Shown: piece after piece, positions 1 to 43,360 of the stretch
Numbering within the stretch: position 1 is the stretch's first letter
Layout of the letters: each line of letters begins with the position of its first letter
NCBI GenBank assembly: GCA_013287965.1
Contig: JABDCU010000006.1
Location: 2,216 to 66,215, forward strand
DNA length: 64,000 bases
Origin: Candidatus Omnitrophota bacterium
GTDB taxonomy: Bacteria; Omnitrophota; Gorgyraeia; Zapsychrales; Fredricksoniimonadaceae
Direction: 5' to 3'
Notes under the pieces: generated by a model
Told to the model about the DNA's origin: nothing
Seen by the model: only the letters and a program-made list of their open reading frames with translations
Databases searched by the model: none
Translations under genes and position numbers: made by a program

Positions 1-3000
1 TCACAGCGAGCTTGATTTATCCGGAGGACGAAATTGGCAAGAAATTTTGGAAACGCATTTACGAAGAAGCAGACAAGAAATTCGGCACAACCAATATTCC
101 TGTGAACACATTTAACAAGGTCTGGATCGTCCCCGAAAAAGCAGTTGTCTACGAAAACGCCAAAGCCGGCACAGCCTATGTGGTGGAAGCAAAATTAAAA
201 GTCATGCTTGAAGAAGACTATTTGTCTCTCTCTCACAATGTCATTCCCGCGCAAGCGGGAATCCACAACAAGAACGACATCAACGCCCTTGGCTCTCAAA
301 TTGTCCGTGAGATTGTCATTCCAGAATTGACCAAAGAAGTCAACTGCGGCCGCAATTTCGCCCAACTCCGCCAAGTTTACAACAGCCTCATCTTGGCCGC
401 CTGGTATAAAAAGAAAATCAAAGACAGTATCCTGGTTCAAGTGTATGACGATAGAAATAAAATCCAAGGCCTTGTCATTCCCGCGAAAGCGGGAATCCAC
501 AACAAGAACGACGTAGAACACATCTATCAACAATACCTAAAAGCCTTCAAAAAAGGCGTCTACAATTACATCAAAGAAGACCAAGACCCTTTGACCCAAC
601 AAACCATCCCAAGAAAATATTTTTCCGGTGGATTGAGAATGGTTGTCAATATACAGACCATGAGGGATTTACCGAGCTTTGCTATGTTACATTCAAACGA
701 TGGATATAGAGTGACAATGGATTTGGCAATGACAACCACTCCCGATACCAGAAGCCTTGTGCATCGTGTTCAGACGGCGGATGTTTATCCGGACATGGAG
801 CGAACAAATTTTATGTTTAAGTACGGACTGAAATTTGAACGCGCGGACCCCAAAGAGATCAGCAACATGCAGAATATGATCAAAAATCCGCTTACGGTTA
901 AAATAGATATTTACCGCCGTCAAGCTGCTGTCGGCCAATTGATCCACTTAGGGACAACGGGGCGTAGAGAATTAGATGGATTGCACGCAGCAGCCAGGTC
1001 TTGGAGTCATGCCCATGCCTGGCTGACTGGAAAAGATAGCGAACACCCGCAAGGCATGCTTGTTTCTTTGATAAACACAGGCAAGGTTAGCGTAGAAAAA
1101 TGGCAGCAGGAAGCCCAGCGCGTTCATAAAAAACAACAGGAAGAAATGCTTCGCAGGAAAGGAAATGAGAAAGAAAAAGAACCTCCTCCTGAAGAAACCG
1201 CTTATTTGGCCCTTGAAGCTGTCTATAATTTTTCTTCTTTATTTGATGGATTGATTAAAAGGCTCGAGGGCTTCAATGACCCCTTACTGCGTGAAATGGC
1301 TGAAGAATTAAACTCATTGAGGCAGGGGTTTTCTTCTCCGGAAGGGTTCTTGGATATTGTCCGCAGGAATGATCAGGAACAATTGGCCGCGATCCATCAG
1401 AAGGCTGATGTCATCGCAGGTAATTTATTGGATCTCGGGGCGCTGTTGTGTTTTGCTGACTACGCGCAAGAAAGAAAGTATGCTCAGGTCAGCTTTGAGG
1501 AAGGCCAGCCTGTTTATTATGAACAAGGAGAGCTTTTTACAGATACTGACGAGAATCAAACAAAGAATGGTAGCCCGGAGGACAGCCTTGTCACGGTCTT
1601 GACAGGCAGTAATATGTCCGGTAAATCACATTATTTAGAACAAAATTTTTACATTCAGCTTTTAGGGCAGGCCTTTGGCTGGGCACCGGTGCAAAAAGGG
1701 AATTTACGGATTTATAAATACATCGCCTATTTAGACCGGCCGCAGGGGGAATATGATTTAAGTTCCTGGGGAAAAGAAGTAACAAATTGGCTTCTTCCGG
1801 AACACCGCATCGGCCAAGACGCCATTTTCTTTGTGGACGAAGGATTTTCCACGACTTCTCCGGAAGACCAGGCCAAATTCCTGAAGGCCTTAAATTCTTT
1901 ACATCAATTGGCCATGAGCCGGGGCGTGCGTTTGATGCTTGCCACTCATAATGAGGAGTATATCAGTGTTAGCGGGAAGGACCGGCAAAAGGTGAAACTG
2001 TACCATTTGGGCGTAGAGGTAAAAAAAGATAAAATTAAATTTACGTATAAACTTAAAAGGGGCAGGGCAGATTCCAACGCCTTCGTTGTAGCACAGGTAT
2101 TGAATTTTCCGAAGCGTGTTTTAGACCGGGCCAAACGTTATGCCCGCGGGCAAGCCCAGCCGGTAAATAATATTGCCCGAAAGGAATTAATCCCTATTCA
2201 AGCATATTCACCTGCTGAACGGGAGGCTGAGAAAAATAAAAAAGGGGGATTTTTGGGATTTTTTCCAAATGATAGCGTATTGCAAATCGTTCCTGCCAAG
2301 GATTCTTGGGACAGGGGCGGTATCGGATGGCGCTATCTATTTAAGGAATATAACACGGTGGGAAAACCATGGAGTCGGCTTAATTCGCATGATTCAAAAG
2401 AGATCTTTCAGCACGATCCTGTTTTTAATGTTTGGAGCCAGGACCCGGATTTTGACGAGGACAGTTCTCCGATGGCAAGGCAGGTGGATTATGGCAAGTT
2501 GACAGGGCAAAAACACCACAGTTACCCTATGCAGAGGATCCACAGGCTTCTTATGGAAGCGTCGGCTCGCGATCCCAAAGAAATTTTAGAACGCCAAAGA
2601 ATGTTTGCTGCCCTTAAAGGATTGGAAAGCACTGATTTTATCAGCAGGCCTTTGGAAAAAGTAGAAGACTTTATGCGCGCGTTGGCCCCCTATGAAGGAG
2701 AGGAAACCTATGATGATGCGCGTTTTAACCTGCGCTTCTTGGAATCATCTGCTGAGATATTCAAACATATAAGTCATCGTAGTACGACGAAAGATCTTAA
2801 GGAAGCTGTGGAATTTTATCTTGGTGTTTTACGGATGAATCTACGGCTTGCCGGCCAAACAGAGAAGGGCTTAGGGGTTGAGGAAGAAATTTCCAAGATT
2901 AAGGAAGTTTTAAGCTTGCAAGAAAAGCTTGATACCTTAGAGCAAGGCAGTCCACGGCATAGCGGGGTAGAGTTCGAGGATGAAGTTTATCAAAAATGGT

Positions 3001-6000
3001 ACAAGGATATTTATGAGCCCAATTTTGACAGGATTTTAGAAAGATTAAGCGAATTAAAAGGCGCGTCGTTAGAATTTTTTGAAACCAAGATAACTGACAA
3101 TACTGAACTTATTGAACAATTTATCCAATCCATTAACACCAAGGTCATGGCTCAAGTACCTGCTTTTTCCGTTTATGATCCCAAGGTATGGGATATCCTG
3201 CGTCAGGAGGTTAATAATTTATATCCTTATGCGTATGAACAAATACAGGCATATTATGGTGGCGATGCTTTCCGAGGTATTGTGCGTTTAAAAAGTCTTT
3301 TGAGTGAGGAAGACGTTGTCAGGCAATTACTGGATGCCATGCGTACGGTAGATTCAGTGCATATGCATCAATGGAGCAATTATTTCGAAGAGATCTTGAA
3401 ATATTCGCTTGGGGCCGTGCGCACAGGCATGGATTATGTCCGGCAATCTGAAGAAAATAGAAAGAAAATACGTGAGCAGGCTTATTGGAATTATCACAAT
3501 TTTGATGAGTTTGAAAAACTGCAAACTATTTTAAATATTGCTTATGTGATCAAATATCAGGACTGGCAGCCGGTGGAATTAACGGACAAAATGCAGATCG
3601 ATATAAAAGGCGCCTGGAACCTGAATAGAAACAAACAGGAACAAGTTCCTTTGAATATGAAAATGGGGGACAATGAACTCCTGCGCATTTATTCCGGCTC
3701 CACGATGTCCGGTAAAACATTCGCGGAAAAAACACTGATATGGCTATCTTTGGCCGGAATGGCCACTGGTTTTGTGCCGGCACAGCGCGCAAAGCTGCCG
3801 GTTTTTGCCCATGTTTTATACCTGGACCGTATTGCAGAGAAACAATTTCGCCATTTGAGTTCTTTTGGCCAGGAAATCACCAACGAGAACGAATTTTTGG
3901 AAAAAGCGGCGGTGCCTGGAGTCGTGCTTGCCGTTGCTGATGAGATCGGGTCAACCACATCGCCGCGGTATCAGGAAGCATGGTCCTATGGTATTTCTGA
4001 GGAAATGCTTGAGGCGGGTAATTTCATGGTCCTCTCATCGCACAATCATCAATTCATTGAAGCCTTTTCCCGCAATAATAAAGAGAGGGTAGGGGTCTAT
4101 AATTTCAAAACCACTGTTGACAAGCAAGCGAATGTGGTTTTTAAACATAAGATCCAAAGAGGGCATGAAGCCAGCAACAGCCTTAGGGTCGCAAAAACCT
4201 TAGGCCTTAAACGGCTGACGGAAATGGTGGAACAGGACAACGCCATGCTCACCACCAGCCGACAAAAGGGCATTGCTTTCCCAAAAAGGCCTTCCGGCGT
4301 AGAAAATAAAATTTGGAATTTAGTACCTAATATCATTATGGTCCATATGATTGATTCGCCTAAATTATTGGATGGTTTGGAAAAGATCGTTCCAAGATTT
4401 AAAAAGCAGTTTATTTTGACATCTCCCCAGTTTCCTAAACCAGCTTTTTTAGGAAAAATTTTTTCCATCGGGAGTTCCTGGGGGGAATTTTCTCCTAAAT
4501 TTTATGAAAATTCTGTTTTTGTTGGCGGCCACATGATGGATTGCTTAGGTAAGTCTGTAGCAGATTTTTCAAAGGCAGCTTTTAAAGCAGGCAGGAGAAA
4601 GGTGACAGTATATTTGTTGGCACCATATGTTTGGACCAATTGGTCAGATAATACTCTTGAGGGTTTTCTACGAGATATGGATTCAAAAGGCGAATCAGTT
4701 AAAATGCTCAACCCATGGACATTTTTCTATAAAAAAAGTTATTTAGACATCATTTTTCGAAAACTTTTGACTGACAATAGGGTTGGTCAGCTGGCTTATT
4801 TGGATAAAGAATTTTTAAATTCATCAACGGTCAAGGTACGGGTCAATGGCGAAGAAAAAGTCATTTATAGCCAAGGCACAACACACACGTTAATTATTGA
4901 TATAGTCAGGGCCAACGACCCTCGATTGAAAATGGATAACTCAATGCTCACCGCCGGTCAGAAGAAATATATAGACGGCGGTTTTGAAAAGGAGATCGGC
5001 GTGCCGTGGGATGGGAAATATGGTTTATCAAAGTGGGCAAAGTCTGTGATTGAAGATCTTGAACCCGCAGAATTACAGGCAATCGCACAGGCAGCCGGGC
5101 CAAAGGCGGCAAAACAGGTGTTTAAGTTCGGGTTCGATACATTGAAAATAGAAAAGGTGTTTACTGCAAAGGACAAAGGATATGGGCCGGGATTGGTGGC
5201 CATGGCAGAGGCGGTTAAAGACAAGACAGGGTTTTTATTGGAAGTTGAATTACCTGGGGCGAAACGAGTAGTAGGCGCGCAGTTTATGGGATACTGGCCT
5301 GGCTTGGTCAGGATTGTACAGGCAGTTGGTCCCAATGCTGTCAATATCGAACCCTATGATGGTGATCTCGGTAAAAAACTTTTTTTAAAAAATGTATTAA
5401 TTACGCTAAAAGAAACTTTTAAAGACGAGTCTAAAGATGAAATTGAAAATGAGCGTGAGTTTAGGGAGCATTGGTGGCCAGAGCTGGTTGAGATGGCAGA
5501 GGCGCTCGGGCCTGACGCGGGAGATGTTCTTTTATACGCATTGCCGACGGTAAAAGGGGTATTGGGCAAGGACTTTAAAGGATATTATTGGCCGGGCTTG
5601 ATCATCATGGCACAAGCGGCAAAAGCCCATACGGTGCTTTTGTTTAAATTGACATTACCGCCATTAAAGAGATTATATGGTAAGAATTTTAAAGAATATT
5701 GGCCGGTATTGGTGGAGATCGCCCGGGATGCCGGGCCTCTCGTAAAATATGTCTTCCGTGGGCTACAGTTGGAGGGTGTGAAATCCCTCGTTTATGATAA
5801 GGAGAGTTTAAAAGAAATAGGCGGGACAGTACTCGACATATTGCACAAAGCCCAGGAGCGTGGGGGCGATCTTGAAGTTGTATTCCCGAGTTTGGCGAAA
5901 GTTAAGGAGGATCCTCAGACGCATGAGGTGGTGGATCCGGACCATATTTTTCTACCTGAGCAGATAAGTTTGATAAACCGGAACTTGGCGAACCATTACC

Positions 6001-7436
6001 ACGAAAATGCGGCGATGGTGTCCAAGAGCAAGGCTTTTAGCGACCGGGCGATGACCAAAGTGGTCAATGGCCATGGGCAGGAAGATCCACTTGTTGTGGA
6101 AGAAAAGATCAAAAAGTTTAATAACGATTTTATCAAATGGGAAAATGTTTGGGACGAAATGCACCGTCAATGGCTTCATGGAGGGGTCCTGATAGATTTT
6201 TGGTTGGGGAAAATCATGCGCGATCATTTGAATTTTAGGGATTATTCGCCTGAAGATTTGGGAGGAGGGGGACGGAGTTCTCCGATACCGTCCAATAAGG
6301 GCGTAATAATGTGGTATGCGTCTAACTCGAAATATCCTTCAGGGATGGTGCTTACTAAAGAGAATTTTATGCGTATGATGCTGGATTTACTTGAACGGGA
6401 CCAGCGCGCAGCAAGGATCTTGATGTGGCAGCTTATTAAAGCTAGCGATGATACAATTGGCCAAGAAGCCATGCACCGCATTGGTCAAGCAAAGGATGAA
6501 GTGGTTAGTCAATATCGGGTGGAAAGACTGGTCCGGTTGCTCCAAAAAGAAAAGATCAACAGGGCATCGTTTCATTTAATGGAGGATATTAAAGAAGTTT
6601 TTGGCAGTGTGACTGATTTTTATGCTTATGACAAAGGTTTTGATCCAGAAATTATTAATAAAACAAGAGGTGATATTGCGTTGAAATGGTCGCATCGGGG
6701 TGCAGATGAGATGCGATGGGGAATTTTAAAACCAGGCCACTTTAAGGCGCTGATCGCTGATCTATTGCAAAAAGATCCTCTGATGGCCAGAAAATTAATT
6801 ATCTCTATGTTAAAAATAAGCCCTAAGAAAGAACAGAAAGCCGTTAATGCCAGGGTCCGAAGAATAGGAGGACAGAAAAAACTGGATGAGATCAATGCCC
6901 TTGCTGATAAATTAATGCAGATGCCATATTTTACAATTTCGCCCCAGCTTGCAGAAGACATGTCACGGGTTTTAAGAAGATTTGGCTGGTATGCCCGGCA
7001 GGGAAAGATTTATATACCTGATAACTCTAAATTAGAGATAAAAGAAGCAGATGAAGTTCAATTCTTATATCATCTTCCAAAAGAAAAAGTCACTAAGGGG
7101 TTTAAGGCGGCCAGAAACAGGGTCCTTTACATATTGGCTGATTTATTGGAAAAGAATAAGTCTGTTTTTAATCAACTTGAACGTGAGGCGGCCAACGCTG
7201 CGATGTCGGTGGAGAATAGAGGTGGTATTGATTTCACCGCTAATAAGACACCGTTGGAGGTGAAAGTGGATTCCCGCTTGCGCGGGAATGACAATGGGAT
7301 ACAGTTTCACCTTGATCCTGCACAGCTTGCACAACTGCAAAATGCGCCTGGTTTTGTGCCGGTGATCATCAGTATTCAGCCCCTGGCTGGCGGACAGGCC
7401 GGGATAACGGATTTGCGCCATTTTTTGGAAACATAA
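1..7436 (+). CDS. Giant multidomain protein, 5' end outside window (2,477 codons visible): conserved N-module, two MutS-type ATPase modules, helical repeats, conserved C-module
   Basis: One uninterrupted frame from the window edge (codon phase starts at nt 3; T-A-S-L-I-Y equals aa 156-161 of the paralog at 38261) to the TAA at 7434-7436. The TTG at 12 in the ORF track is therefore not the real start. Domain evidence is given in the sub-features. Confidence 0.85.
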   Translation, partial: TASLIYPEDEIGKKFWKRIYEEADKKFGTTNIPVNTFNKVWIVPEKAVVYENAKAGTAYVVEAKLKVMLEEDYLSLSHNVIPAQAGIHNKNDINALGSQIVREIVIPELTKEVNCGRNFAQLRQVYNSLILAAWYKKKIKDSILVQVYDDRNKIQGLVIPAKAGIHNKNDVEHIYQQYLKAFKKGVYNYIKEDQDPLTQQTIPRKYFSGGLRMVVNIQTMRDLPSFAMLHSNDGYRVTMDLAMTTTPDTRSLVHRVQTADVYPDMERTNFMFKYGLKFERADPKEISNMQNMIKNPLTVKIDIYRRQAAVGQLIHLGTTGRRELDGLHAAARSWSHAHAWLTGKDSEHPQGMLVSLINTGKVSVEKWQQEAQRVHKKQQEEMLRRKGNEKEKEPPPEETAYLALEAVYNFSSLFDGLIKRLEGFNDPLLREMAEELNSLRQGFSSPEGFLDIVRRNDQEQLAAIHQKADVIAGNLLDLGALLCFADYAQERKYAQVSFEEGQPVYYEQGELFTDTDENQTKNGSPEDSLVTVLTGSNMSGKSHYLEQNFYIQLLGQAFGWAPVQKGNLRIYKYIAYLDRPQGEYDLSSWGKEVTNWLLPEHRIGQDAIFFVDEGFSTTSPEDQAKFLKALNSLHQLAMSRGVRLMLATHNEEYISVSGKDRQKVKLYHLGVEVKKDKIKFTYKLKRGRADSNAFVVAQVLNFPKRVLDRAKRYARGQAQPVNNIARKELIPIQAYSPAEREAEKNKKGGFLGFFPNDSVLQIVPAKDSWDRGGIGWRYLFKEYNTVGKPWSRLNSHDSKEIFQHDPVFNVWSQDPDFDEDSSPMARQVDYGKLTGQKHHSYPMQRIHRLLMEASARDPKEILERQRMFAALKGLESTDFISRPLEKVEDFMRALAPYEGEETYDDARFNLRFLESSAEIFKHISHRSTTKDLKEAVEFYLGVLRMNLRLAGQTEKGLGVEEEISKIKEVLSLQEKLDTLEQGSPRHSGVEFEDEVYQKWYKDIYEPNFDRILERLSELKGASLEFFETKITDNTELIEQFIQSINTKVMAQVPAFSVYDPKVWDILRQEVNNLYPYAYEQIQAYYGGDAFRGIVRLKSLLSEEDVVRQLLDAMRTVDSVHMHQWSNYFEEILKYSLGAVRTGMDYVRQSEENRKKIREQAYWNYHNFDEFEKLQTILNIAYVIKYQDWQPVELTDKMQIDIKGAWNLNRNKQEQVPLNMKMGDNELLRIYSGSTMSGKTFAEKTLIWLSLAGMATGFVPAQRAKLPVFAHVLYLDRIAEKQFRHLSSFGQEITNENEFLEKAAVPGVVLAVADEIGSTTSPRYQEAWSYGISEEMLEAGNFMVLSSHNHQFIEAFSRNNKERVGVYNFKTTVDKQANVVFKHKIQRGHEASNSLRVAKTLGLKRLTEMVEQDNAMLTTSRQKGIAFPKRPSGVENKIWNLVPNIIMVHMIDSPKLLDGLEKIVPRFKKQFILTSPQFPKPAFLGKIFSIGSSWGEFSPKFYENSVFVGGHMMDCLGKSVADFSKAAFKAGRRKVTVYLLAPYVWTNWSDNTLEGFLRDMDSKGESVKMLNPWTFFYKKSYLDIIFRKLLTDNRVGQLAYLDKEFLNSSTVKVRVNGEEKVIYSQGTTHTLIIDIVRANDPRLKMDNSMLTAGQKKYIDGGFEKEIGVPWDGKYGLSKWAKSVIEDLEPAELQAIAQAAGPKAAKQVFKFGFDTLKIEKVFTAKDKGYGPGLVAMAEAVKDKTGFLLEVELPGAKRVVGAQFMGYWPGLVRIVQAVGPNAVNIEPYDGDLGKKLFLKNVLITLKETFKDESKDEIENEREFREHWWPELVEMAEALGPDAGDVLLYALPTVKGVLGKDFKGYYWPGLIIMAQAAKAHTVLLFKLTLPPLKRLYGKNFKEYWPVLVEIARDAGPLVKYVFRGLQLEGVKSLVYDKESLKEIGGTVLDILHKAQERGGDLEVVFPSLAKVKEDPQTHEVVDPDHIFLPEQISLINRNLANHYHENAAMVSKSKAFSDRAMTKVVNGHGQEDPLVVEEKIKKFNNDFIKWENVWDEMHRQWLHGGVLIDFWLGKIMRDHLNFRDYSPEDLGGGGRSSPIPSNKGVIMWYASNSKYPSGMVLTKENFMRMMLDLLERDQRAARILMWQLIKASDDTIGQEAMHRIGQAKDEVVSQYRVERLVRLLQKEKINRASFHLMEDIKEVFGSVTDFYAYDKGFDPEIINKTRGDIALKWSHRGADEMRWGILKPGHFKALIADLLQKDPLMARKLIISMLKISPKKEQKAVNARVRRIGGQKKLDEINALADKLMQMPYFTISPQLAEDMSRVLRRFGWYARQGKIYIPDNSKLEIKEADEVQFLYHLPKEKVTKGFKAARNRVLYILADLLEKNKSVFNQLEREAANAAMSVENRGGIDFTANKTPLEVKVDSRLRGNDNGIQFHLDPAQLAQLQNAPGFVPVIISIQPLAGGQAGITDLRHFLET
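240..278 (+). repeat. In-frame palindromic hairpin element, copy A (27-nt core + 12-nt tail), translated VIPAQAGIH-NKND
   Basis: Sequence is gtcATTCCCGCgcaaGCGGGAATccac: an 8-bp perfect stem with a GCAA (GNRA) loop, 27 nt = 9 codons. It is 38/39 identical to 474-512, and the core is 27/27 identical to the reverse complement of 7266-7292. Confidence 0.9.
474..512 (+). repeat. In-frame palindromic hairpin element, copy B, translated VIPAKAGIH-NKND
   Basis: Sequence is gtcATTCCCGCgaaaGCGGGAATccac + aacaagaacgac, with a GAAA loop. The core is 27/27 identical to the reverse complement of 43211-43237. The paralog has no element at this site (GYKNSIN instead). Confidence 0.9.
1404..2147 (+). other. 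MutS-type ATPase module 1 (domain V-like, with preceding core-like helices)
   Basis: Motifs appear in the canonical MutS domain V order: Walker A VLTGSNMSGKSHYLEQ (GSNMSGKS at 1605-1628), Walker B FFVDEGFSTTSPEDQ, LMLATHNEE, then FTYKLKRGRADSNAFVVAQVLNFP. Confidence 0.7.
3534..4226 (+). other. MutS-type ATPase module 2
   Basis: Second copy of the same motif series: IYSGSTMSGKTFAEK (GSTMSGKT at 3696-3719), LAVADEIGSTTSPRYQ, VLSSHNHQF, FKHKIQRGHEASNSLRVAKTLGL. Confidence 0.7.
5058..5816 (+). repeat. About six degenerate ~37-45-aa helical repeats (HEAT/ARM-like) inside the giant ORF
   Basis: Recurring unit [FY]xG-[YW]WP[GEV]L[VI]xxAxAxGP...LP..K...GK.F. Examples: YGPGLVAMAEAV, YWPGLVRIVQAVGPNA, WWPELVEMAEALGPDAG, YYWPGLIIMAQAAKAH, YWPVLVEIARDAGPLV. 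Confidence 0.6.
7221..7436 (+). repeat. Conserved C-terminal module (partner 43163-43360)
   Basis: GGIDF..(hairpin insert)..GIQFHLDPAQLAQLQNAPGFVPVIISIQPL aligns with GGIDL...GIQFHLDPAMLAQLQNAPGFVPVIINIQPL in the second giant ORF. Confidence 0.85.
7266..7292 (-). repeat. In-frame hairpin element in opposite orientation, translated VDSRLRGND
   Basis: gtgGATTCCCGCttgcGCGGGAATgac is the exact reverse complement of 240-266. Confidence 0.9.
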
Positions 7437-7447
7437 GAGAAAATGAC

Positions 7448-7476
7448 TTTACATATCTATGAGCGGAGGATATAAT
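7448..7476 (+). promoter_or_regulatory. Candidate sigma70-type promoter for hisG
   Basis: TTTACA (7448-7453), 17-nt spacer, TATAAT (7471-7476). The ATG at 7487 is only 10 nt downstream, so the leader would be very short. Confidence 0.35.
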
Positions 7477-7486
7477 TCCAAACCAT

Positions 7487-8362
7487 ATGAAAAAGCTTAA
7501 GTTAGGATTGCCTAAAGGAAGTTTGCAGGACGCCACCGTGGCCTTGTTTGAGAAGGCGGGCTTTAAGGTGATGGTGTCCACCCGTTCCTATTTCCCTCAA
7601 ATTGACGACGAGGAAATTTCGCCGGTGCTTTTGCGCGCCCAGGAAATGTCCCGTTATGTTGAAGATGAGACCCTGGATTGCGGCATCACCGGTGCTGACT
7701 GGATCCAGGAGAATTCTTCCCAGGTCACATCCTTGGCCGAGCTTTTATATGCCAAACAGACCAGCAATAAGGTTCGCTGGGTCCTGGCCGTGCCTGAAGC
7801 TTCCTCTATTAGGTCAGTCAAAGACCTGCAAGGCAAGAAGATCGCCACTGAAGTTGTCAATGTCACCAAAAAATATTTAGCCAAACATAAGGTCAAGGCA
7901 GATGTGGAATTTTCCTGGGGTGCCACCGAAGCCAAGGTCGCCACAGGCCTTGTTGATGCCATTGTTGAATTGACGGAGACAGGTTCGTCCCTGCGCGCCA
8001 ATAAGCTGCGCATCGTTGATACTTTGTGCGAATCCACCACCCAATTCATTGCCAATAAAAAAGCCCTTAAAGATCCTTGGAAAAAAATGAAAATGGACCA
8101 GATCATTATGCTGTTAAAAGGGGCCTTGCAGGCGAAAAACATGGTGGGCTTGAAGATGAATGTGCAGCGTAAGAATTTGAACAAGATCTTAAAGTCAGTC
8201 ACCGCGTTGCGCAATCCCACGATCTCACCATTAGTCAACGACCAGTGGGTGGCCCTGGAAACAGTCATTGATGAAGGTACCGTACGTAAAATTATCCCGG
8301 CCCTTAAAGAAGCAGGGGCTGAAGGGATCATTGAATATTCGCTCAATAAGTTGATATATTAA
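7487..8362 (+). CDS. hisG: ATP phosphoribosyltransferase (long form)
   Basis: 291 aa. [22 protein letters not shown]-terminus, [26 protein letters not shown] core, and a C-terminal regulatory-domain-length tail. Confidence 0.85.
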
Positions 8363-13362: not shown

Positions 13363-13907
13363 AGTTGATTGTAGGCTTGGGCAACCCCGGGCCGCAATAT
13401 AGATGGACCCGTCACAATTTAGGTTTTATGGTCCTTGAAGCAATGGGCGCCGGAGAGAAACCTAAGAAGGCGCGTATCAGCGGTGTTGAATGTTCTTTGT
13501 TGATGCCGATGACGTTCATGAATGATTCCGGATTGTCTGTCAAGAAGCTGGCCGACAGGCAGGGGGTGTCCCTGGAAGATATCCTGGTCATTTGTGATGA
13601 TCTGGACCTGTCCTTTACAAAGATGCGCTTGCGGCCTTCGGGCTCTGCCGGAGGCCATAATGGGTTAAAATCCATTATCAAGGAGTTGGGGTCAAATCAA
13701 TTTTGTCGTCTCCGGATGGGTATTGACAGCCCCAAAAACGGGGCTGATACAGTAGATTACGTCTTATCGAATTTCACTCTCGAGCAGAAAAAAGTTCTGC
13801 CGGAATTTATTAATCATGCACTAGACTGTGTCACATGCTGGGTGACCGAAGGTGCGGAAGTTGCAATGAACCTCTACAACCAAAGGAAAAGTAATGAACA
13901 AGTATGA
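13359..13907 (+). CDS. pth: Peptidyl-tRNA hydrolase
   Basis: MKLIVGLGNPG..Y..TRHNLGF and GGHNGLKSI motifs. Confidence 0.9.
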   Translation: MKLIVGLGNPGPQYRWTRHNLGFMVLEAMGAGEKPKKARISGVECSLLMPMTFMNDSGLSVKKLADRQGVSLEDILVICDDLDLSFTKMRLRPSGSAGGHNGLKSIIKELGSNQFCRLRMGIDSPKNGADTVDYVLSNFTLEQKKVLPEFINHALDCVTCWVTEGAEVAMNLYNQRKSNEQV

Positions 13908-15036: not shown

Positions 15037-15062
15037 AGATTCTTCGCTTCGCTCAGAATGAC
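15037..15062 (-). repeat. Imperfect hairpin element of the GATTC...GAATGAC family, intergenic
   Basis: aGATTCTtcgcttcgctcAGAATGAC ends 12 nt before the rplI ATG, immediately 5' of the gaggag RBS. Confidence 0.6.
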
Positions 15063-31538: not shown

Positions 31539-31623
31539 TCAAATTCCAGGCCACCCGCCGCAATTTTAATTTTGACTTTTTCAATATCCAATGATAATGT
31601 AATGCACTTTAGAGAGATGAAAT

Positions 31624-31653
31624 GGATTCCCGACAGAAGCATTCGGGAATGAC
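31624..31653 (-). repeat. Hairpin element of the GGATTCCC...GGGAATGAC family, intergenic
   Basis: GGATTCCCGAcagaagcatTCGGGAATGAC has an 8-bp perfect stem and ends 14 nt before ATG 31668 (gggag RBS in between). Confidence 0.75.
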
Positions 31654-32194: not shown

Positions 32195-32200
32195 TTAAAT

Positions 32201-32230
32201 GGACCCCCGATTAAAACATTCGGGGGTGAC
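32201..32230 (-). repeat. Hairpin element, variant of the same family
   Basis: GGACCCCCGAttaaaacatTCGGGGGTGAC has a 7-bp stem, the same GA...TC inner pair and TGAC end as 31624-31653. It ends 9 nt before ATG 32240. Confidence 0.7.
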
Positions 32231-38260: not shown

Positions 38261-41200
38261 TTGCATACTTTATATAGTATGGAGAGGACCCCAAGATTCC
38301 CTGTTTCTTGCTTTTCAAAGCGGCTTTATAGGTCGTGGGGTTTTTTTGTCGTTTTAACCGCCTTTTTGGCTAATTCCTTTGGGCCTCTGCCTTTGGCTCA
38401 AGCTCAAGAGTTTCGTCTGCCTGCGCCCGGAGTAATGGTCCGTTTAAGCCCTGAATTCAATCCGCCAATATTAAAAGGCCTCAAAGTCCATCCTAACAAT
38501 CCTTTCCGTTTCGATTTCATTTTGGACAAAGGTGATTCATCGGTTCCTCTTAAGCCCGAAGCCACCAAACTGATCAAATATTTCCTCTCCAGCTTAACCA
38601 TCCCTGAAAAAGATTTATGGGTTAATCTTTCGCCATATGAGAAAAATAGGATCATCCCCCAAAGTTTCGGTTTAACCGAAATGGGCAGGGACCTTTTGGC
38701 TGAAGACTATATGCTCAAGCAGATCACTGCAAGTTTAATTTATCCTGAGGATGAGATAGGTAAGAAATTCTGGAAACGCATTTATGAAGAAGCCGCGAAG
38801 AAATTTGGTACAACCAACATCCCGGTCAATACGTTCAATAAGGTCTGGATAGTGCCTGAAAAAGCCGTTGTCTACGAAAACTCCAAGGCCGGCACAGCTT
38901 ATGTGGTGGAAGCAAAACTTAAGGTCATGCTTGAGGAAGATTATTTGTCTCTTTCCCATCATGTCATTCCTGCGAAAGGTCGTATTGACCGACACTCGCA
39001 GTTGCTCGCGGGAATCCAGAACACGAGCGCCCTTGGCTCTCAAATCGTCCGCGAGATAGTCATCCCCGAACTGACCAAAGAGATCAACCAAAACAAAAAC
39101 TTCGCCCAGCTCCGCCAGGTCTATAATTCGCTTATTTTAGCCACCTGGTACAAAAAGAAGATCAAAGACAGTATTCTGGCTCAAGTGTATGAAGACAAAA
39201 AGAAAGTAGCAGGTGTAGGATACAAGAATTCCATCAACATTGAAGCCATCTACCAGCGCTACCTCCAAGCCTTCAAAAAAGGCGCCTATAACTATATCAA
39301 AGAAGAACAAGACCCGTTGACCCAGCAAGTCATTCCCAGGAAATATTTTTCAGGAGGGGCTGCTTTTAATAATAAAGCTATGTTAGTAGCGATGAAATTT
39401 ACCACCCAGATGCCAAAGAGTCAGACAGGATTACAGGAAATTGATATCAATTTGGCAATGGCACACCAGGAAGGATTTATCAGGACCCGCCATGATCATC
39501 CATCGTGGGAAAATCAGGCCCAGCAATTCCATGATCTTTATGGGGAAAGCCACGCCAAGGAAGCCTATCTTCTATATGGGACCAACTATGATATTAGGCA
39601 AGGCGATGTACGGATTCTTGCTTCTATACTTAATGCCCATCATATATTTCCTAAACCCGGCGGGACCCTGGTTGTTGCCGGGTTTGGAAGTCGTCTTAGC
39701 GAGTTGCCAATGCTTCAGAAACTTTTCCAAGCCAGCCGGGTGCTCGGAGTGGATTGGATGCAGTCCGTTATTGATCGGGCGGATATTTATCTTAGGCAAC
39801 AGGACGTCTCTCCTGACGTTTTCGGTCTTTACCACGAAGATGTAAGAGATATGCATTCATTCATTAAGGATGATTCCGTTGATGTTTTTTTTGCACAATT
39901 GATCACAGAACATGACTATTCACGTGAATCTGAAAAACTTAATGAGATCCTGCGCATACTCAAGCCTGGAGGCGTTGCTTTTCTTGGTGGATGCGGGGCT
40001 GATTTTGCTAAAGATATTCCTCCCGGTTTAGAGGTGAAAGTCATCAATTCAGGAAGAAGTATTATCTTGTATAAAGCAGGGAAAAGAGGAGCAGAAAGTC
40101 AGGCAATGTCGGCCCCGGTCCCTGCCCAAAATAAGGTGGCGAAATCACCGCAAGCCCGCAAGGCGCAGGCCAAGCCTGGTGATAAGGCGATGGTTGAATT
40201 AATTGATAAGCGTTTAAAAAGGGCTGCCGAAGCAGAACAAGTAGCCGTGCTGAATTATCATCCTGACATTCCCGGAACGCGGGAAGCCCTTATAGCAATG
40301 TTAGGGTTTTTAGGGCAATCTTATTATGAAGTGACAAAGGAGAATTTAGCCACAACGCTTAAGAGAGGTGATGGCAGGTGGTTGAATGTTGTTGTTGCTC
40401 CTGATGATTTGCCGTTTGCAAGTGATGAACAAAGGGAAGCTTTTTTGAACCTGATCCACGTACAAGCCGGGAAAGAGGTCAGTTTGGAAACCATTGGTGA
40501 TGTGTCCAGGTATCAAGATAAAGATTTGACTGTATTTTCTAGAAAGCTTAGGGATAATTTGACTGATTTATATAGTATTGAGGGGTTTAGGTTCATGGTG
40601 CGGAAATTAATTCAAAAAAGAGGAGATAAACGTGATGACGCACATCTAAAATTGGCGGTTTTTGATATAGATCATTTAGGATCAATTAATTCGATTTGGG
40701 GCCATGATCAGGGTAACAAAGTCGTAGTAGGTACGTCCGGGGTTTTCGAGTCTGTCGTTAGGCCTGATGAAATTATTGCCCATTTACACGGTGGTGATGA
40801 ATTTGCCATATTAACGGAAGGGTCAGAAGATCGTCCTCAACAGATCCTCAAGGCAATCAGGGAAAAGATGCATCAGTTTCTTCCTTATACCAGGGAAAAA
40901 GTGATTGAACAGCTCAAGTCAAAGAGGCTTGAAAATGATAAAGATGATGCTTATGATGGAATGATATATCAGTTGGCTTTACAGAATCCCCAAAAGGGTA
41001 AGAACCCTGCTGTTATTGAGAGTGTCTTAAAACGAAAGTTTAAGAGTTTAAAACAAATTGTCGTAGAACTGGAGCAACCGGAATCGCCATATAAATTTGA
41101 AGGACCGCGCCTCACATATAGTATGGGTGTTGTTGATTTTGACGAAAACGAAACAACAAAACTTCCCAGAGATCGTGTTGGGATTAGAAAACTAGTCGAC

Positions 41201-43360
41201 AGTCTTTATGCACAGGCTGACGAGCATTTGCTAGTTGCCAAAAGCAAGGGGAGGGATCGGGTTTGGGAAGAACCTTATAGAGATTCAGCCATGGTGATGA
41301 ATTCATCGCAAGCCAGCGACAGGGCCATGGCCCAAGAGCATGAAGCGACGGCCCAGGAGCTTGGATGGTTTTTTATGAACCATGATCTTTTTCTCACATT
41401 TCCGGTTTTTTCTAACCACGCCAAGACCAATAAGGTCAAACGAGGAATATATTTGCCCCATGATGAAGTCAAGAAATTACTGGGGATCGTTAAAAAATCC
41501 AGCCTTTCAAAATATGAGGGTTCGGGCACAGTTTTGGATGCCAATAATCGAAACATTTGGGAAGAAATCTCCGTCCCAGCAAATAAAGAAGAGGGTATTG
41601 CCCCTTCAGCAGATGAAATAGAAGTGCGCTTAAAACCTGATATTATTATCACAGAAAGTGATTTTCGGGGCATGGTAAAAAATGGCGGTGACTTTGACCA
41701 TATTGCGGCCATTGTCAAACAGGTACAGGATAGAAAATTGAAAGCAGTTACGAGGGGGCCGGGGATGGTAGATTTTTTTTGGAAGCCGGGGCAGGAGTAT
41801 AAATGGACAATGATCACAAAAGAACCGGTCGACCAGGTGTCCGTTGTCCCATCAGGAGAATATGATCAGATCAATTTTGAGGATTTTGTAACAGTAGGAG
41901 ACAAGAAAAATTATAAAATTTGGGTTGAAGGGGGATCAGTAATGTTCCAGGTTTATAATAAAGATGGCAGTGTTCCCCTAAAAAATATCGTAAAGGCGAA
42001 GGTAATGAAGCTAAAATCAGCTGAAGGGACCTTTTTTGATATCAACGATAAAGAGAGCGTCTGGGAACAGGGCGATTCCCCGGAAGAGATGCATTTAAAG
42101 CCCCATTTTTTTATAGATGCGAAATTGAAAGATGAGAGTAGGAAATTGGCAAGGATGCCGGGAAAAGAGCATTATGATAGTTTGGAAGACGCTGCCCGGA
42201 AAATCTTAAAAGGCAATGATGTAATAGAATTTTTGAAGATCTTGAAAGAAGCCCAAGAAGAGATGGAAGTAAAAAGACTTCCCTGGCAGGGGTTTTATGT
42301 TGAAGAAAAAGCCTTCAGGTTCCATGTTCAGGAAAGGGAGAAGGGTAAATATACGTTATATTTTCGAAGCCTTAAAGCATCTCCCACTTTACGGTGGAAA
42401 GCTGTTCCGGTTGATCCGTTGATCTTGGGGGCCTTTCAGAATGCGGGGGATAAAAAGAAATCGTTTGGATTTGTTGATACAATAAAAGGATTGGCTGTGT
42501 TGATGGCGGGGGACGCTCCTGGACTAAGGGATGGGTTTCAGGTGTTGACGGAAGAGCTTTCTAACAAGGAGGCGCGGGAAATAGCCAATGATACACAGGA
42601 AGGGCTCAGGTTTTTCTTGCAAAAGTCAGTCATTAAGGCATGGGGCGCCATTATAGAACATACCATGAATAGAAATTATGTTTATGATTCTGCTAAACAC
42701 CATCCGGATATTATGGCGGCTGCCTATGGGAAAGATGAGAAAGGCCATCCCATTATCATTGTAGTCTATACGGGCGCAGGGAATCTGTATGAGCTCAGGC
42801 ACAAAACACACTCACATTCTGAGGTCCTCACGCTTTTGAACATTCAGGAAAATCGTTTAGGTATAAAAGTGTCATTAGTAAAAGATTTGAGGGAAGGAGA
42901 TTCTGTAATTATGATGTCCGGCAGGGGCGAACTCGAAGAAGGTGTTGCTTTTCATGATGATGACGATGACACCCCGGAAGGAATTGCCCAGACGTATCTG
43001 CCCAGCGATATAAGGCAAATTAAGAAAAATCCTGGCATACTGGTTTTTCGTATTGTCAATGCCGCTATGTCTTCCGCAAATATTTTAGCCGGCAGGAATA
43101 TTAAAACAAGGCCAAGTGCCCGGGTGGGTTTAAAAGGTCAAGTAAGGAGACAGTTGAAAAACGGCGGTATTGATCTGACCCCTGCGCGTATGGATTTACA
43201 GACTAAAGTAGTGGATTCCCGCTTTCGCGGGAATGACAAAGGGATTCAGTTTCACCTTGACCCTGCCATGCTGGCCCAACTGCAAAACGCCCCTGGCTTT
43301 GTGCCGGTGATCATCAATATCCAGCCATTAAATGATTTGAAAGCATTCTTGGCTGGCTAA
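38261..43360 (+). CDS. Giant exported multidomain protein (1,699 aa): signal peptide, conserved N-module, methyltransferase-like region, GGDEF domain, ~600 aa unassigned, conserved C-module
   Basis: Single ORF; likely start is ATG 38279 (MERTPRFPVSCFSKRLYRSWGFFVVLTAFLANSFGPLPLAQA/QE, a Sec-type signal). N- and C-modules are paralogous to ORF 1-7436. Confidence 0.9.
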   Translation: MHTLYSMERTPRFPVSCFSKRLYRSWGFFVVLTAFLANSFGPLPLAQAQEFRLPAPGVMVRLSPEFNPPILKGLKVHPNNPFRFDFILDKGDSSVPLKPEATKLIKYFLSSLTIPEKDLWVNLSPYEKNRIIPQSFGLTEMGRDLLAEDYMLKQITASLIYPEDEIGKKFWKRIYEEAAKKFGTTNIPVNTFNKVWIVPEKAVVYENSKAGTAYVVEAKLKVMLEEDYLSLSHHVIPAKGRIDRHSQLLAGIQNTSALGSQIVREIVIPELTKEINQNKNFAQLRQVYNSLILATWYKKKIKDSILAQVYEDKKKVAGVGYKNSINIEAIYQRYLQAFKKGAYNYIKEEQDPLTQQVIPRKYFSGGAAFNNKAMLVAMKFTTQMPKSQTGLQEIDINLAMAHQEGFIRTRHDHPSWENQAQQFHDLYGESHAKEAYLLYGTNYDIRQGDVRILASILNAHHIFPKPGGTLVVAGFGSRLSELPMLQKLFQASRVLGVDWMQSVIDRADIYLRQQDVSPDVFGLYHEDVRDMHSFIKDDSVDVFFAQLITEHDYSRESEKLNEILRILKPGGVAFLGGCGADFAKDIPPGLEVKVINSGRSIILYKAGKRGAESQAMSAPVPAQNKVAKSPQARKAQAKPGDKAMVELIDKRLKRAAEAEQVAVLNYHPDIPGTREALIAMLGFLGQSYYEVTKENLATTLKRGDGRWLNVVVAPDDLPFASDEQREAFLNLIHVQAGKEVSLETIGDVSRYQDKDLTVFSRKLRDNLTDLYSIEGFRFMVRKLIQKRGDKRDDAHLKLAVFDIDHLGSINSIWGHDQGNKVVVGTSGVFESVVRPDEIIAHLHGGDEFAILTEGSEDRPQQILKAIREKMHQFLPYTREKVIEQLKSKRLENDKDDAYDGMIYQLALQNPQKGKNPAVIESVLKRKFKSLKQIVVELEQPESPYKFEGPRLTYSMGVVDFDENETTKLPRDRVGIRKLVDSLYAQADEHLLVAKSKGRDRVWEEPYRDSAMVMNSSQASDRAMAQEHEATAQELGWFFMNHDLFLTFPVFSNHAKTNKVKRGIYLPHDEVKKLLGIVKKSSLSKYEGSGTVLDANNRNIWEEISVPANKEEGIAPSADEIEVRLKPDIIITESDFRGMVKNGGDFDHIAAIVKQVQDRKLKAVTRGPGMVDFFWKPGQEYKWTMITKEPVDQVSVVPSGEYDQINFEDFVTVGDKKNYKIWVEGGSVMFQVYNKDGSVPLKNIVKAKVMKLKSAEGTFFDINDKESVWEQGDSPEEMHLKPHFFIDAKLKDESRKLARMPGKEHYDSLEDAARKILKGNDVIEFLKILKEAQEEMEVKRLPWQGFYVEEKAFRFHVQEREKGKYTLYFRSLKASPTLRWKAVPVDPLILGAFQNAGDKKKSFGFVDTIKGLAVLMAGDAPGLRDGFQVLTEELSNKEAREIANDTQEGLRFFLQKSVIKAWGAIIEHTMNRNYVYDSAKHHPDIMAAAYGKDEKGHPIIIVVYTGAGNLYELRHKTHSHSEVLTLLNIQENRLGIKVSLVKDLREGDSVIMMSGRGELEEGVAFHDDDDDTPEGIAQTYLPSDIRQIKKNPGILVFRIVNAAMSSANILAGRNIKTRPSARVGLKGQVRRQLKNGGIDLTPARMDLQTKVVDSRFRGNDKGIQFHLDPAMLAQLQNAPGFVPVIINIQPLNDLKAFLAG
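38963..39019 (+). repeat. Expanded (57-nt) in-frame version of the hairpin element, translated VIPAKGRIDRHSQLLAGIQ
   Basis: Arms gtcATTCCTGCgaaa...GCGGGAATccag match the 27-nt element. 30 extra nt (ggtcgtattgaccgacactcgcagttgctc) sit at the loop. It occupies the same site as copy A (240-266) in the paralog. Confidence 0.8.
39644..40015 (+). other. Class I SAM-dependent methyltransferase-like region
   Basis: GGTLVVAGFGSRLSE (divergent motif I), VLGVDWMQSVIDRA, DVFFAQLITEH, LRILKPGGVAFLGG. Confidence 0.45.
40568..41269 (+). other. GGDEF (diguanylate cyclase-type) domain
   Basis: LAVFDIDHLGSINSIWGHDQGNKVV, HGGDEFAIL (GGDEF at 40790-40804), TYSMGVVDF, ADEHLLVAKSKGRDRV. Confidence 0.75.
43211..43237 (-). 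repeat. In-frame hairpin element, opposite orientation, translated VDSRFRGND
   Basis: gtgGATTCCCGCtttcGCGGGAATgac is the exact reverse complement of 474-500 and occupies the same site in the C-module as 7266-7292. Confidence 0.9.

Follow-up and report, generated by a model that had tools for sequence, protein, structure and literature searches.

In-frame copies of the NTS/SRM hairpin repeat in a large modular protein family of Omnitrophota

Background

Two large genes in a 64-kb stretch of DNA from a Candidatus Omnitrophota bacterium (the whole stretch is called here the window) carry, at the same position of a conserved module, a hairpin-forming segment of 27 bases. A sequence-only reading had noticed that this segment differs between the genes less than the codons around it. 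The question raised by the locus is why DNA embedded within a selected coding sequence should be conserved beyond its codons. Two answers had been offered, namely selection on the nucleic acid itself, or homogenisation or re-insertion among copies, and an assembly artefact had been named as a possible trivial cause.

Host genes and modules

The two genes are the following.

3..7436, + strand: host gene 1, at least 2477 aa, its 5' end cut by the window edge
38261..43360, + strand: host gene 2, 1699 aa

In gene 1, a cargo containing two MutS domain V regions is set between a conserved N-module and a conserved C-module (about 70 aa). Gene 2 starts with a signal-peptide-like N-terminus, followed by the conserved N-module (about 370 aa), a cargo with methyltransferase and GGDEF domains, and the conserved C-module. 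Both had been described as giant ORFs; two big ORFs are indeed present, and at these lengths they are better called large. The N-module has 1327 homologues, the named ones almost all from Candidatus Omnitrophica/Omnitrophota, and the family is multi-copy per genome: the window contains two of its genes, as does each of the related loci L274, L297 and L300. No Pfam family was found for the N- or C-modules, and a Foldseek search of the AlphaFold model of the N-module (pLDDT 70) against the PDB returned nothing below E = 0.5.

Copies of the hairpin in the window

A perfect 28-mer, TGTCATTCCCGCG[C/A]AAGCGGGAATCCAC, occurs four times in the window, so that the repeat unit is 28 nt long, with a T in front of the 27-mer originally noticed. 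A fifth copy is disrupted.

239..266, + strand: NTS/SRM hairpin, gene-1 N-module hot spot 1, after ...LSLSHN; matches the SRM pattern; -9.9 kcal/mol, z = -5.8
473..500, + strand: NTS/SRM hairpin, gene-1 N-module hot spot 2, after ...KIQGL; matches the SRM pattern; -10.4 kcal/mol, z = -4.7
7266..7293, - strand: NTS/SRM hairpin, gene-1 C-module, loop GCAA on the NTS strand; matches the SRM pattern; -9.0 kcal/mol, z = -4.2
43211..43238, - strand: NTS/SRM hairpin, gene-2 C-module (the copy that raised the question), reading TGTCATTCCCGCGAAAGCGGGAATCCAC on the - strand; matches the SRM pattern; -9.1 kcal/mol, z = -4.3
38962..39019, + strand: fifth NTS copy, disrupted, gene-2 N-module hot spot 1, recognized by reading the sequence, at the same N-module position as 240-266

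Re-reading of the sequences bore out the coordinates and pairings given earlier: 7266-7292 (GTGGATTCCCGCTTGCGCGGGAATGAC) and 240-266 are exact reverse complements of each other, as are 43211-43237 (GTGGATTCCCGCTTTCGCGGGAATGAC) and 474-500. As single-stranded DNA, the element folds into a stem of 8 bp (ATTCCCGC/GCGGGAAT) with a loop of 4 nt, as the copy at 43211..43238 does, with energies from -9 to -10.4 kcal/mol and z from -3.5 to -5.8; the insert is therefore, as had been proposed, a hairpin. The arrangement ATTCCCGC-N4-GCGGGAAT is found four times, against 0.04 expected from shuffles.

With five of its six frames open, the element is translated as nine residues, VIPA(K/Q)AGIH in sense and VDSR(F/L)RGND in antisense orientation. 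The N-module copies are in sense (VIPAQAGIH at 239..266, VIPAKAGIH at 473..500), those of the C-modules in antisense (VDSRLRGND at 7266..7293, VDSRFRGND at 43211..43238). Gene 2 has no copy at the position equivalent to 473..500 of gene 1. Its disrupted copy is composed of a left half, TGTCATTCCTGCGAAA (38962-38977), an insert of 30 nt in the loop (38978-39007) and a right half, GCGGGAATCCAG (39008-39019); a C-to-T change is also present in the left arm, and the canonical hairpin fold is lost (z = -1.45).

The two N-module copies of gene 1 have 40 nt in common (239-278 and 473-512), including 13 nt of flank, a feature which hints at copying by recombination rather than at precise transposition and, as such, sits uneasily with the explanation preferred below.

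Identity with the NTS/SRM repeats

The 27-mer is a copy of an already described repeat family, NTS/SRM, which includes the dRS3 repeats of Neisseria. NTS (Neisseria Transformation Sequence) is a single-stranded DNA hairpin cut by the GIY-YIG nuclease SsnA, which binds the hairpin, cleaves it 5' of the stem at a distance of a few bases, and has no action on RNA (PMC11893778); SRM stands for Ssn-related motif. When the SRM pattern HGTCWYN(0-2)YYVSBRHN(0-5)WNVSBRGN(0-2)RNCYNB was searched in the window, exactly the four intact copies were found, against 0.08 matches expected from dinucleotide shuffles, and all four contain an exact match to the dRS3 20-mer ATTCCC-N8-GGGAAT. They agree with the NTS consensus CGTCATTCCCGCGMAVGCGGGAATCYRG at 26 of 28 positions, the mismatches being T for C at position 1 and C for G at position 28; this deviation counts against the explanation preferred below. 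NTS sensu stricto, by the search rule of PMC11893778, allows at most one mismatch to CGTCATTCCCGCGMAVGCGGGAATCYRG, and the window copies, with two, lie outside it; a single mismatch is seen in several copies from related Omnitrophota loci, whose last four bases are CCAG.

The likeness to the NTS/SRM system and its Ssn nucleases (Nat Commun 2025, PMC11893778) extends to the shared core GTCATTCCCGCG-MAV-GCGGGAATC, to the 8-bp stem and 4-nt loop, to the non-palindromic flanks which define an orientation, to the multi-copy occurrence across many major bacterial lineages and to the inward-facing copies which flank ssn genes. The window copies retain the bases reported as critical (PMC11893778): a GTC preceding the palindrome, which matters for cleavage, and the C that directly follows it, crucial for binding. 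The differences are the two outermost positions and the location in frame within protein-coding genes: only 2% of the NTS of N. meningitidis are inside genes, and neither Omnitrophota nor in-frame copies are mentioned in that work (PMC11893778).

Ssn is defined as a single-domain GIY-YIG protein (cd10448), whose gene is typically flanked by SRM. Neither tblastn nor a regular expression detected an ssn gene in the window (64 kb) or among 79 related loci (1.02 Mb of family loci). This absence counts against the explanation preferred below but says little, since the search covers a small part of any one genome and about one hit is expected at that coverage. An ORF of Ssn type (7260-7535; PF01541, E = 7.6e-17) adjoins related hairpins in the Omnitrophota MAG L163, and such ORFs with hairpins on their flanks are also present in six other NTS loci. 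In three loci (L028, L201, L229) the ssn gene lies between NTS-type hairpins arranged left(+)/right(-), the right one of L229 being a variant. We infer that the window copies may be recognized by a putative Ssn nuclease of this genome.

Distribution of the element

The exact 26-mer is contained in at least 120 stretches of genome contigs and at least 120 stretches of viral contigs, and spans well over a dozen major bacterial lineages. Hosts among the 80 matches listed include Proteobacteria, CPR groups, Chloroflexota, Planctomycetota, Acidobacteriota, Nitrospirae, Elusimicrobia, Omnitrophota and a Rickettsia endosymbiont. Copies are frequently arranged as inverted doublets. The locus of the Rickettsia endosymbiont (L188) contains two NTS-core hairpins about 100 nt apart within an open frame of about 1140 codons, and an exact inverted doublet of the 26-mer elsewhere. 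In related contigs the element is found in frame within lpxB and within an ABC-F gene, and in intergenic DNA in both orientations; it is therefore not specific to the two window genes. This wider occurrence had escaped the sequence-only reading, as had the fact that the element was already described.

Conservation of the element relative to its flanks

The C-module copies of the two genes differ at one of 27 bases, located in the loop, and the next 93 nt at 16 positions, 12 of them synonymous, in full agreement with the earlier count. Taken alone, this pair is marginal (binomial P = 0.04, Fisher P = 0.06), a weakness which had not been remarked upon. The alternative, that in a larger sample the element would diverge as much as its flanks, was evaluated on 16 same-site pairs from independent metagenome contigs, which favour the original observation: divergence is 2.6% (11/416) in the element and 24% (632/2624) in the flanks, a comparison biased by the choice of intact copies only. 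When decayed copies are included, the C-module site is represented by four intact copies, one with a single stem change and three decayed or interrupted; intact copies are far more numerous than they would be under neutral decay at the rate of the flanks. An assembly artefact is unlikely, as the gene-1 C-module copy is present, with the same flanks, in an independent assembly (Logan SRR8431262, L320).

Occupancy, orientation and turnover

Within the family, inserts are found at four indel-prone positions, three in the N-module and one in the C-module, always in frame and in the same frame at each site. The three N-module hot spots, all rich in indels, correspond to predicted loops (residues 90-96, 234-252 and 317-326); in the AlphaFold model, pLDDT falls below 50 for the second and third of these. 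In gene 1, hot spot 0 falls in the N-terminus, beyond the window edge.

Occupancy is patchy. Only four of the 120 best N-module homologues carry the element, and the nearest relatives of the carriers are usually without it; decayed and interrupted copies exist in the host family, and two further hairpin families also occupy the four hot spots. Since most homologues are devoid of the element and decayed copies exist, conservation is a property of the repeat family and not of the host gene. Patchy occupancy, decayed copies and the replacement of one family by another at the same site point to turnover rather than static inheritance, and fit the earlier suggestion of homogenisation or re-insertion. 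A search for near-identical empty sites yielded no pair closer than about 83%, and no target-site duplication was established; one candidate empty site, in L253, turned out to be filled by a GTT variant.

Compared to the surrounding DNA, hairpin density is 4-fold in the N-modules and 13-fold in the C-modules. Orientation is polarized, with 16 sense and 1 antisense hairpins in N-modules and 0 sense and 6 antisense in C-modules; about 20 C-module inserts could be judged by their peptide, and all are antisense. The polarity holds in two hairpin families with different reading frames. Neither the density within modules nor the polarized orientation is predicted by purely passive landing in tolerant loops, which counts against the explanation proposed below.

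Other hairpins and a 30-nt mini-element

Other repeats detected in the window are listed here.

15038..15062, - strand: GTCAT-type hairpin of another family, GTCATTCTGAGCGAAGCGAAGAATC, intergenic, in the rpsR/rplI spacer
31623..31653, - strand: hairpin of the 9-nt-loop family, GTCATTCCCGAATGCTTCTGTCGGGAATCCA, intergenic
32200..32230, - strand: hairpin of the 9-nt-loop family, GTCACCCCCGAATGTTTTAATCGGGGGTCCA, intergenic
38978..39007, + strand: mini-element GGTCGTATTGACCGACACTCGCAGTTGCTC, 30 nt, peptide GRIDRHSQLL, at the junction between loop and right arm of an NTS hairpin

In other loci the 9-nt-loop family shares the hot spots of the N- and C-modules. The mini-element, which interrupts the fifth copy, is present in eight copies in 1.08 Mb of Omnitrophota loci, four of them within SRM hairpins, whereas 1.9 Mb of loci from other bacteria contain no copy; no match was found in viral contigs or in the literature. 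In L316, an NTS loop is interrupted at the corresponding point by a relative of 66 nt with the same termini (GGTCGTA...GTTGCTC). A Rfam scan of the whole window revealed nothing at the hairpins, but only two tRNAs and a weak, probably spurious match to SNORD36, a eukaryotic snoRNA. Nothing relevant was found in the literature on Omnitrophota and palindromic repeats.

Origin of the conservation

The explanation to which we assign a probability of roughly 0.78 is that dispersed copies of the NTS/SRM hairpin landed in frame in the indel-prone positions of the N- and C-modules, and that their near-identity is characteristic of the repeat family. The forward strand, when single-stranded, folds into the 8-bp stem and 4-nt loop; copies would land in frame at the indel-prone spots of the conserved modules and persist there. 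Their near-identity across genes, orientations and lineages is likely caused by the constraint of nuclease recognition combined with turnover or replacement of copies. Both answers offered at the outset may thus be retained: the selection on the nucleic acid corresponds to bases constrained by a sequence-specific ssDNA nuclease and identical across many lineages, and re-insertion to the turnover described above. DNA conserved beyond its selected codons needs no new biology, since what is conserved is the hairpin recognized by a recently described family of ssDNA nucleases.

Polarity could also have a function. The hairpins may have been recruited in Omnitrophota as oriented, inward-facing boundary marks in the modules of a polymorphic protein family with signal peptides, the NTS forward strand being the sense strand in the N-module and the antisense strand in the C-module. 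They would bracket the variable cargo, like terminal inverted repeats, with Ssn cleavage of ssDNA just outside each hairpin governing exchange, replacement or protection of the cassette, among paralogues or during DNA uptake, and with the loops acting as landing pads for the second-order mini-element. The 16:1 and 0:6 orientation counts, consistent across two hairpin families, would suit such marks, as would the same left(+)/right(-) geometry around the ssn genes of L028, L201 and L229, the co-occurrence of N- and C-module hairpins within genes (3/3/2/47, Fisher P = 0.007) and the almost complete lack of hairpins in the cargo (1 in 162 kb); in Neisseria, the genes of variable surface proteins have NTS clusters on their flanks, and these clusters modulate the integration of transforming DNA (PMC11893778). 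Hairpins at both ends are found, however, in only about 4 of 55 complete family genes, and they lie inside the modules, about 45 aa and 15 aa away from the cargo junctions. Nucleotide identity between the window genes along the N-module shows no step at the hairpins (84%, 81-84%, 80%). Moreover, each hot spot may have been seeded once, in which case the orientation counts are not independent and four events give P of about 0.1, and co-occurrence may merely mirror hairpin-rich genomes. On balance we consider such a role unlikely.

Processes acting on the host genes themselves account less well for the data. Plain gene conversion among paralogous modules, which could keep a segment identical with no element-specific process, is suggested by the presence of several family copies per genome and by the 40 nt shared by the N-module copies of gene 1. 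It was rejected, as quite improbable, because identity ends sharply at the element edge, where adjoining codons are 16-24% diverged, N- and C-module copies are reverse complements set in unrelated flanks, and the same 26-mer recurs in intergenic DNA, lpxB, an ABC-F gene and many major lineages. A selected role in the host mRNAs, in stability, ribosome pausing or as a processing site, might be read from the stable stem and from the GNRA-type loops (GAAA, GCAA) of the N-module sense transcript. The opposite C-module orientation gives UUUC and UUGC loops, though, intergenic copies occur in both orientations, no Rfam family matches, SsnA is inactive on RNA and most homologues lack the element, so that an RNA element was discarded as very improbable. 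It is hardly credible that the protein family conserves these nine residues as a functional peptide motif. In its favour, copies are never out of frame, and each site uses one frame throughout. Yet the peptide read in sense (VIPAKAGIH) bears no relation to that read in antisense (VDSRFRGND), codons of the stem show no third-position variation where flanking synonymous sites vary, the element is missing from 116 of the 120 best homologues, and the three N-module sites are in predicted loops, two of low confidence. A protein motif was therefore rejected too.

Relation to other repeats

Like the palindromic elements of Rickettsia (RPE), which are inserted in frame in unrelated genes and read as a tolerated extra peptide (PMC10969869), the present copies are palindromic and read through in unrelated ORFs (the four family hot spots, lpxB and the ABC-F gene). 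RPE are, on the other hand, defined in Rickettsia and about 100-150 bp long, whereas the window unit is single, measures 27-28 nt, and identity ends at its boundaries. The REP/REPIN repeats with their RAYT enzymes are also short hairpins, frequently in inverted doublets, served by a domesticated single-gene enzyme acting on ssDNA hairpins, whose gene is flanked by the repeats. RAYT is, however, of the HUH/Y1 (IS200/IS605) type, while the enzyme which accompanies the present repeat, both in published work and in L028, L201, L229 and L163, is GIY-YIG; REP are by definition extragenic with a GTAG head, unlike the window copies, which are intragenic and have none. The element therefore falls outside the REP/REPIN-RAYT group. 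MITEs are similarly small, non-autonomous, multi-copy and palindromic, and occasionally in frame in genes, but typically far longer, and neither terminal inverted repeats distinct from the hairpin nor a target-site duplication are visible at the five window copies.

Significance

The NTS/SRM element is already known; what is new is its in-frame context in a large modular protein family of Omnitrophota. The known range of the Ssn repeats is extended to this phylum, to in-frame tolerance within proteins, including housekeeping enzymes, in a manner similar to RPE, and to hot spots of fixed orientation in one modular protein family, shared by several hairpin families. When VIPAKAGIQ, DSRFRGND, HSRESGNP, SFPRKRES or similar peptides turn up in predicted proteins, they flag DNA repeats and not protein motifs. 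The family provides a natural data set for the questions raised by the description of Ssn, namely how the repeats spread and whether they shape recombination around variable genes. Should the hairpins after all act as boundaries of the cargo, they would constitute an in-frame system of domain shuffling or recombination control.

Copies of the element and family assignment

The element lies within two genes in which conserved terminal parts (N-module and C-module) enclose a variable cargo. It is found on the + strand as GTCATTCCCGCG[C/A]AAGCGGGAATCCAC, and in the C-modules as the exact reverse complement.

Genes and element copies in the window
3..7436, +, gene 1, 2477 aa or more, truncated at the window edge; cargo of two MutS domain V regions
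38261..43360, +, gene 2, 1699 aa; cargo of a methyltransferase and a GGDEF domain
240-266, +, intact copy, gene 1 N-module
474-500, +, intact copy, gene 1 N-module
7266-7292, -, reverse complement of 240-266, gene 1 C-module
43211-43237, -, reverse complement of 474-500, gene 2 C-module
38962-39019, fifth copy, disrupted, gene 2 N-module, position equivalent to 240-266

The core, ATTCCCGC-N4-GCGGGAAT, occurs 4 times in the window, versus 0.04 expected. Identity between the two gene 1 N-module copies covers 40 nt, reaching 13 nt past the element. Folded as ssDNA, each of the four intact copies forms a hairpin with 8 bp in the stem and 4 nt in the loop (-9 to -10.4 kcal/mol, z = -3.5 to -5.8). 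The disrupted copy, which has undergone a C-to-T change in its left arm and has a loop insert of 30 nt, lacks this hairpin. Five of the 6 reading frames through the element are open.

One study (Nat Commun 2025, PMC11893778) defined both the Neisseria Transformation Sequence (NTS), CGTCATTCCCGCGMAVGCGGGAATCYRG, of which dRS3 repeats are a subset, and a wider Ssn-related motif, SRM. NTS is bound and cut as ssDNA, on one strand only, by SsnA, a single-domain GIY-YIG nuclease of 94 aa, which accepts neither RNA nor double-stranded DNA and whose gene often has repeats on its flanks; a GTC upstream of the palindrome and a C directly after it are critical for cleavage and binding (PMC11893778). Taken as the 28-mer TGTCATTCCCGCG[C/A]AAGCGGGAATCCAC, all 4 intact window copies fit the SRM pattern (0.08 expected), and agree with the NTS consensus at 26 of 28 positions, the mismatches being confined to the two outermost ones; GTC is present 5' of the palindrome and C directly 3'. 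By sequence and fold, the window element thus belongs to the SRM family. The element itself is already described; what is new is its context, a modular protein family of Omnitrophota, with the element in frame at oriented hot spots.

At gene 2 hot spot 0, one of the N-module insertion positions, window 38540-38548 reads ...GATTCATCG GTTCCT CTTAAG..., while filled alleles read ...TCT GTCATTCCCGCGAAAGCGGGAATCCAGAATCAAGAACAA CTTAAA...; the downstream flank of gene 2 is of the filled-allele type. This possible left-arm relic may, tentatively, be what remained once an NTS copy was lost.

Distribution among bacteria

The exact 26-mer has a pan-bacterial distribution. Among genome_contigs, at least 120 stretches (80 listed) contain it, including ones from Proteobacteria, CPR groups, Chloroflexota, Planctomycetota, Acidobacteriota, Nitrospirae, Elusimicrobia, Omnitrophota and a Rickettsia endosymbiont, as do at least 120 stretches of viral contigs. 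Copies are frequently arranged as inverted doublets. That major bacterial lineages share this sequence unchanged points to constraint by a sequence-specific partner. An Ssn-type protein is encoded in 7 of these 240 26-mer loci, including L163, from an Omnitrophota MAG (PF01541, E = 7.6e-17); in three loci (L028, L201, L229) the ssn gene has a forward hairpin on its left and a reverse hairpin on its right. Neither the window nor 1.02 Mb of related loci yielded an ssn gene; at this coverage, absence is little informative.

In L163, at 1285-1350 and 3657-3720, an inverted hairpin from another family comes about 10 nt after each intergenic NTS, forming a hetero-doublet similar to a REPIN. The Rickettsia endosymbiont locus, L188, contains a pair of NTS-core hairpins, spaced by about 100 nt, within an open frame of about 1140 codons and, elsewhere, an inverted doublet of the exact 26-mer. 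These observations suggest a link between SRMs and in-frame palindromes of the Rickettsia palindromic element (RPE) type.

Host family and insertion sites

Genes 1 and 2 share 77% aa identity in the N-module and 67% in the C-module (about 70 aa), while their centres are unrelated. The N-module has 1327 homologues, with many and varied cargo domains; those named by organism are nearly all labelled Candidatus Omnitrophica/Omnitrophota, and the element is present in only 4 of the 120 best homologues. Family members (window genes and loci L241-L319) start with a signal-peptide-like N-terminus, followed by the conserved N-module of about 370 aa, which has no Pfam or PDB match, an enzymatic cargo that varies widely (MutS domain V, methyltransferase plus GGDEF, HAD, kinase, HD, HEAT) and, last, a C-module of about 60 aa, again conserved (GGIDL...GIKFHLDP...APGFVPVII.IQP). 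Two such genes per locus are common, and the layout resembles that of polymorphic effector or toxin families.

Hairpins of NTS type and of a second family (GTCATYCCCGAATG...CGGGRATCC, 9-nt loop) were surveyed in 79 metagenome loci and the window.

Hairpin density by region
N-modules: 0.167 per kb
C-modules: 0.54 per kb
Other DNA of the loci: 0.042 per kb
Cargo: 1 hairpin in 162 kb

Within the host family only four positions are used, after gene 2 residues ~94, ~231-241, ~318-324 and ~1649. The three N-module positions are all rich in indels in the family alignment, and correspond to loops 90-96, 234-252 and 317-326 of an AlphaFold model (pLDDT 70), the latter two with pLDDT below 50. In-frame copies are located at permissive, indel-prone sites, which in the N-module are predicted loops. 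Orientation is polarised, with 16 sense and 1 antisense in N-modules, 0 sense and 6 antisense in C-modules. Judged by peptide, about 20 of 62 C-modules contain an insert, intact or decayed, from one of three hairpin families, all antisense; the peptides used are VIPAxAGI(H/Q) in N-modules and (V/M)DSR(F/L)RGND in C-modules.

In related Omnitrophota contigs, in-frame copies were also found in housekeeping genes: in lpxB (L248 6331-7581, - strand; PF02684, E = 5e-97), as CHSRESGNP plus an VIARSAVQRSKATKQS insert, and in the C-terminal extension of an ABC-F ATPase (L253 4692-6746), as VIPAKAGIS plus KTGSPVETFRGD. Read-through hairpins are thus a general trait of these genomes, comparable to Rickettsia RPEs.

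Other hairpins and loop inserts

Three further hairpins, of other families and starting with GTCAT, are missed by the published SRM pattern because their loops are longer.

15038-15062, -, intergenic, rpsR-rplI spacer
31623-31653, -, intergenic, upstream of the ORF at 32240
32200-32230, -, intergenic, upstream of the same ORF

A 30-nt mini-element, GGTCGTATTGACCGACACTCGCAGTTGCTC (peptide GRIDRHSQLL; window 38978-39007), enters SRM hairpins of two families in frame, at the junction of loop and right arm. Among the loci covered it was seen in those of Omnitrophota only, with no match in viral contigs or the literature.

Further copies of the mini-element, by locus
L250 (-) 6915; L258 2699; L271 10316; L282 4357
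L284 370; L290 (-) 13428; L302 (-) 18202

Locus L316, at about 13730-13800, has a 66-nt relative within an NTS loop, identical in its termini, insertion point and orientation. Both inserts look like second-order insertions having hairpin loops as target.

Conservation and turnover

The sequence-only reading held that the C-module hairpin is conserved better than the codons around it. The two C-module copies indeed differ at one position, in the loop, against 16 differences, 12 of them synonymous, in the 93 nt downstream, although the excess conservation in this single pair is marginal (P about 0.04-0.06). In a larger sample of 16 same-site pairs, from independent contigs and selected as intact copies, divergence is 11/416 (2.6%, mainly in the loop) for the element versus 632/2624 (24%) for the flanks; the observation is upheld, and the effect is real and robust. 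The C site is intact in 4 cases, has a single stem change in one (L253) and is decayed or interrupted in three (L251, L318, L316). Since a neutral 26-mer would almost never be intact at 24% flank divergence, intact copies are either young or constrained.

The alternative originally posed, selection on the nucleic acid itself or homogenisation and re-insertion among copies, was rightly framed. Element carriers are not mutual nearest relatives, a given site is occupied, in the same orientation, by different hairpin families, and half-element relics adjoin full copies in locus L241: together, these features point to copies that turn over, rather than being statically inherited.

Plain gene conversion among paralogues would not account for identity ending at the element edge, nor for N- and C-module copies that are oppositely oriented within unrelated flanks. 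Selection for a peptide motif is at odds with the different peptides encoded by the two orientations and with the invariant third codon positions of the stem, and a role at the RNA level with the opposite orientations in the modules, the intergenic copies and the lack of a matching Rfam family. Independent assemblies rule out an assembly artefact. L320, an independently assembled 14.4 kb contig of the same region (Logan SRR8431262), breaks within gene 1 and again directly past rpsR, adjoining the hairpin at window 15038-15062; these breaks agree with short-read assemblies being fragmented by repeats.

Possible role of the arrangement

By analogy with the Neisseria work, a cognate Ssn nuclease would recognise the forward strand while it is single-stranded in replication, DNA uptake or repair, with the nick presumably falling 5' of the stem. 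In the N-module the forward strand is the sense strand of the gene, in the C-module the antisense one, and either gene strand, when single-stranded, would bear a cleavable site. N and C sites face inward around the cargo, in a geometry matching that of the hairpins around ssn genes, and may serve, for instance, to restrict or steer recombination in the conserved modules flanking the variable cargo. However, hairpins are present at both ends in no more than about 4 of 55 complete genes, the hairpins lie within the modules, away from the cargo junctions, the identity profile of gene 1 against gene 2 has no step at them, and the orientation counts may come down to four ancestral events.
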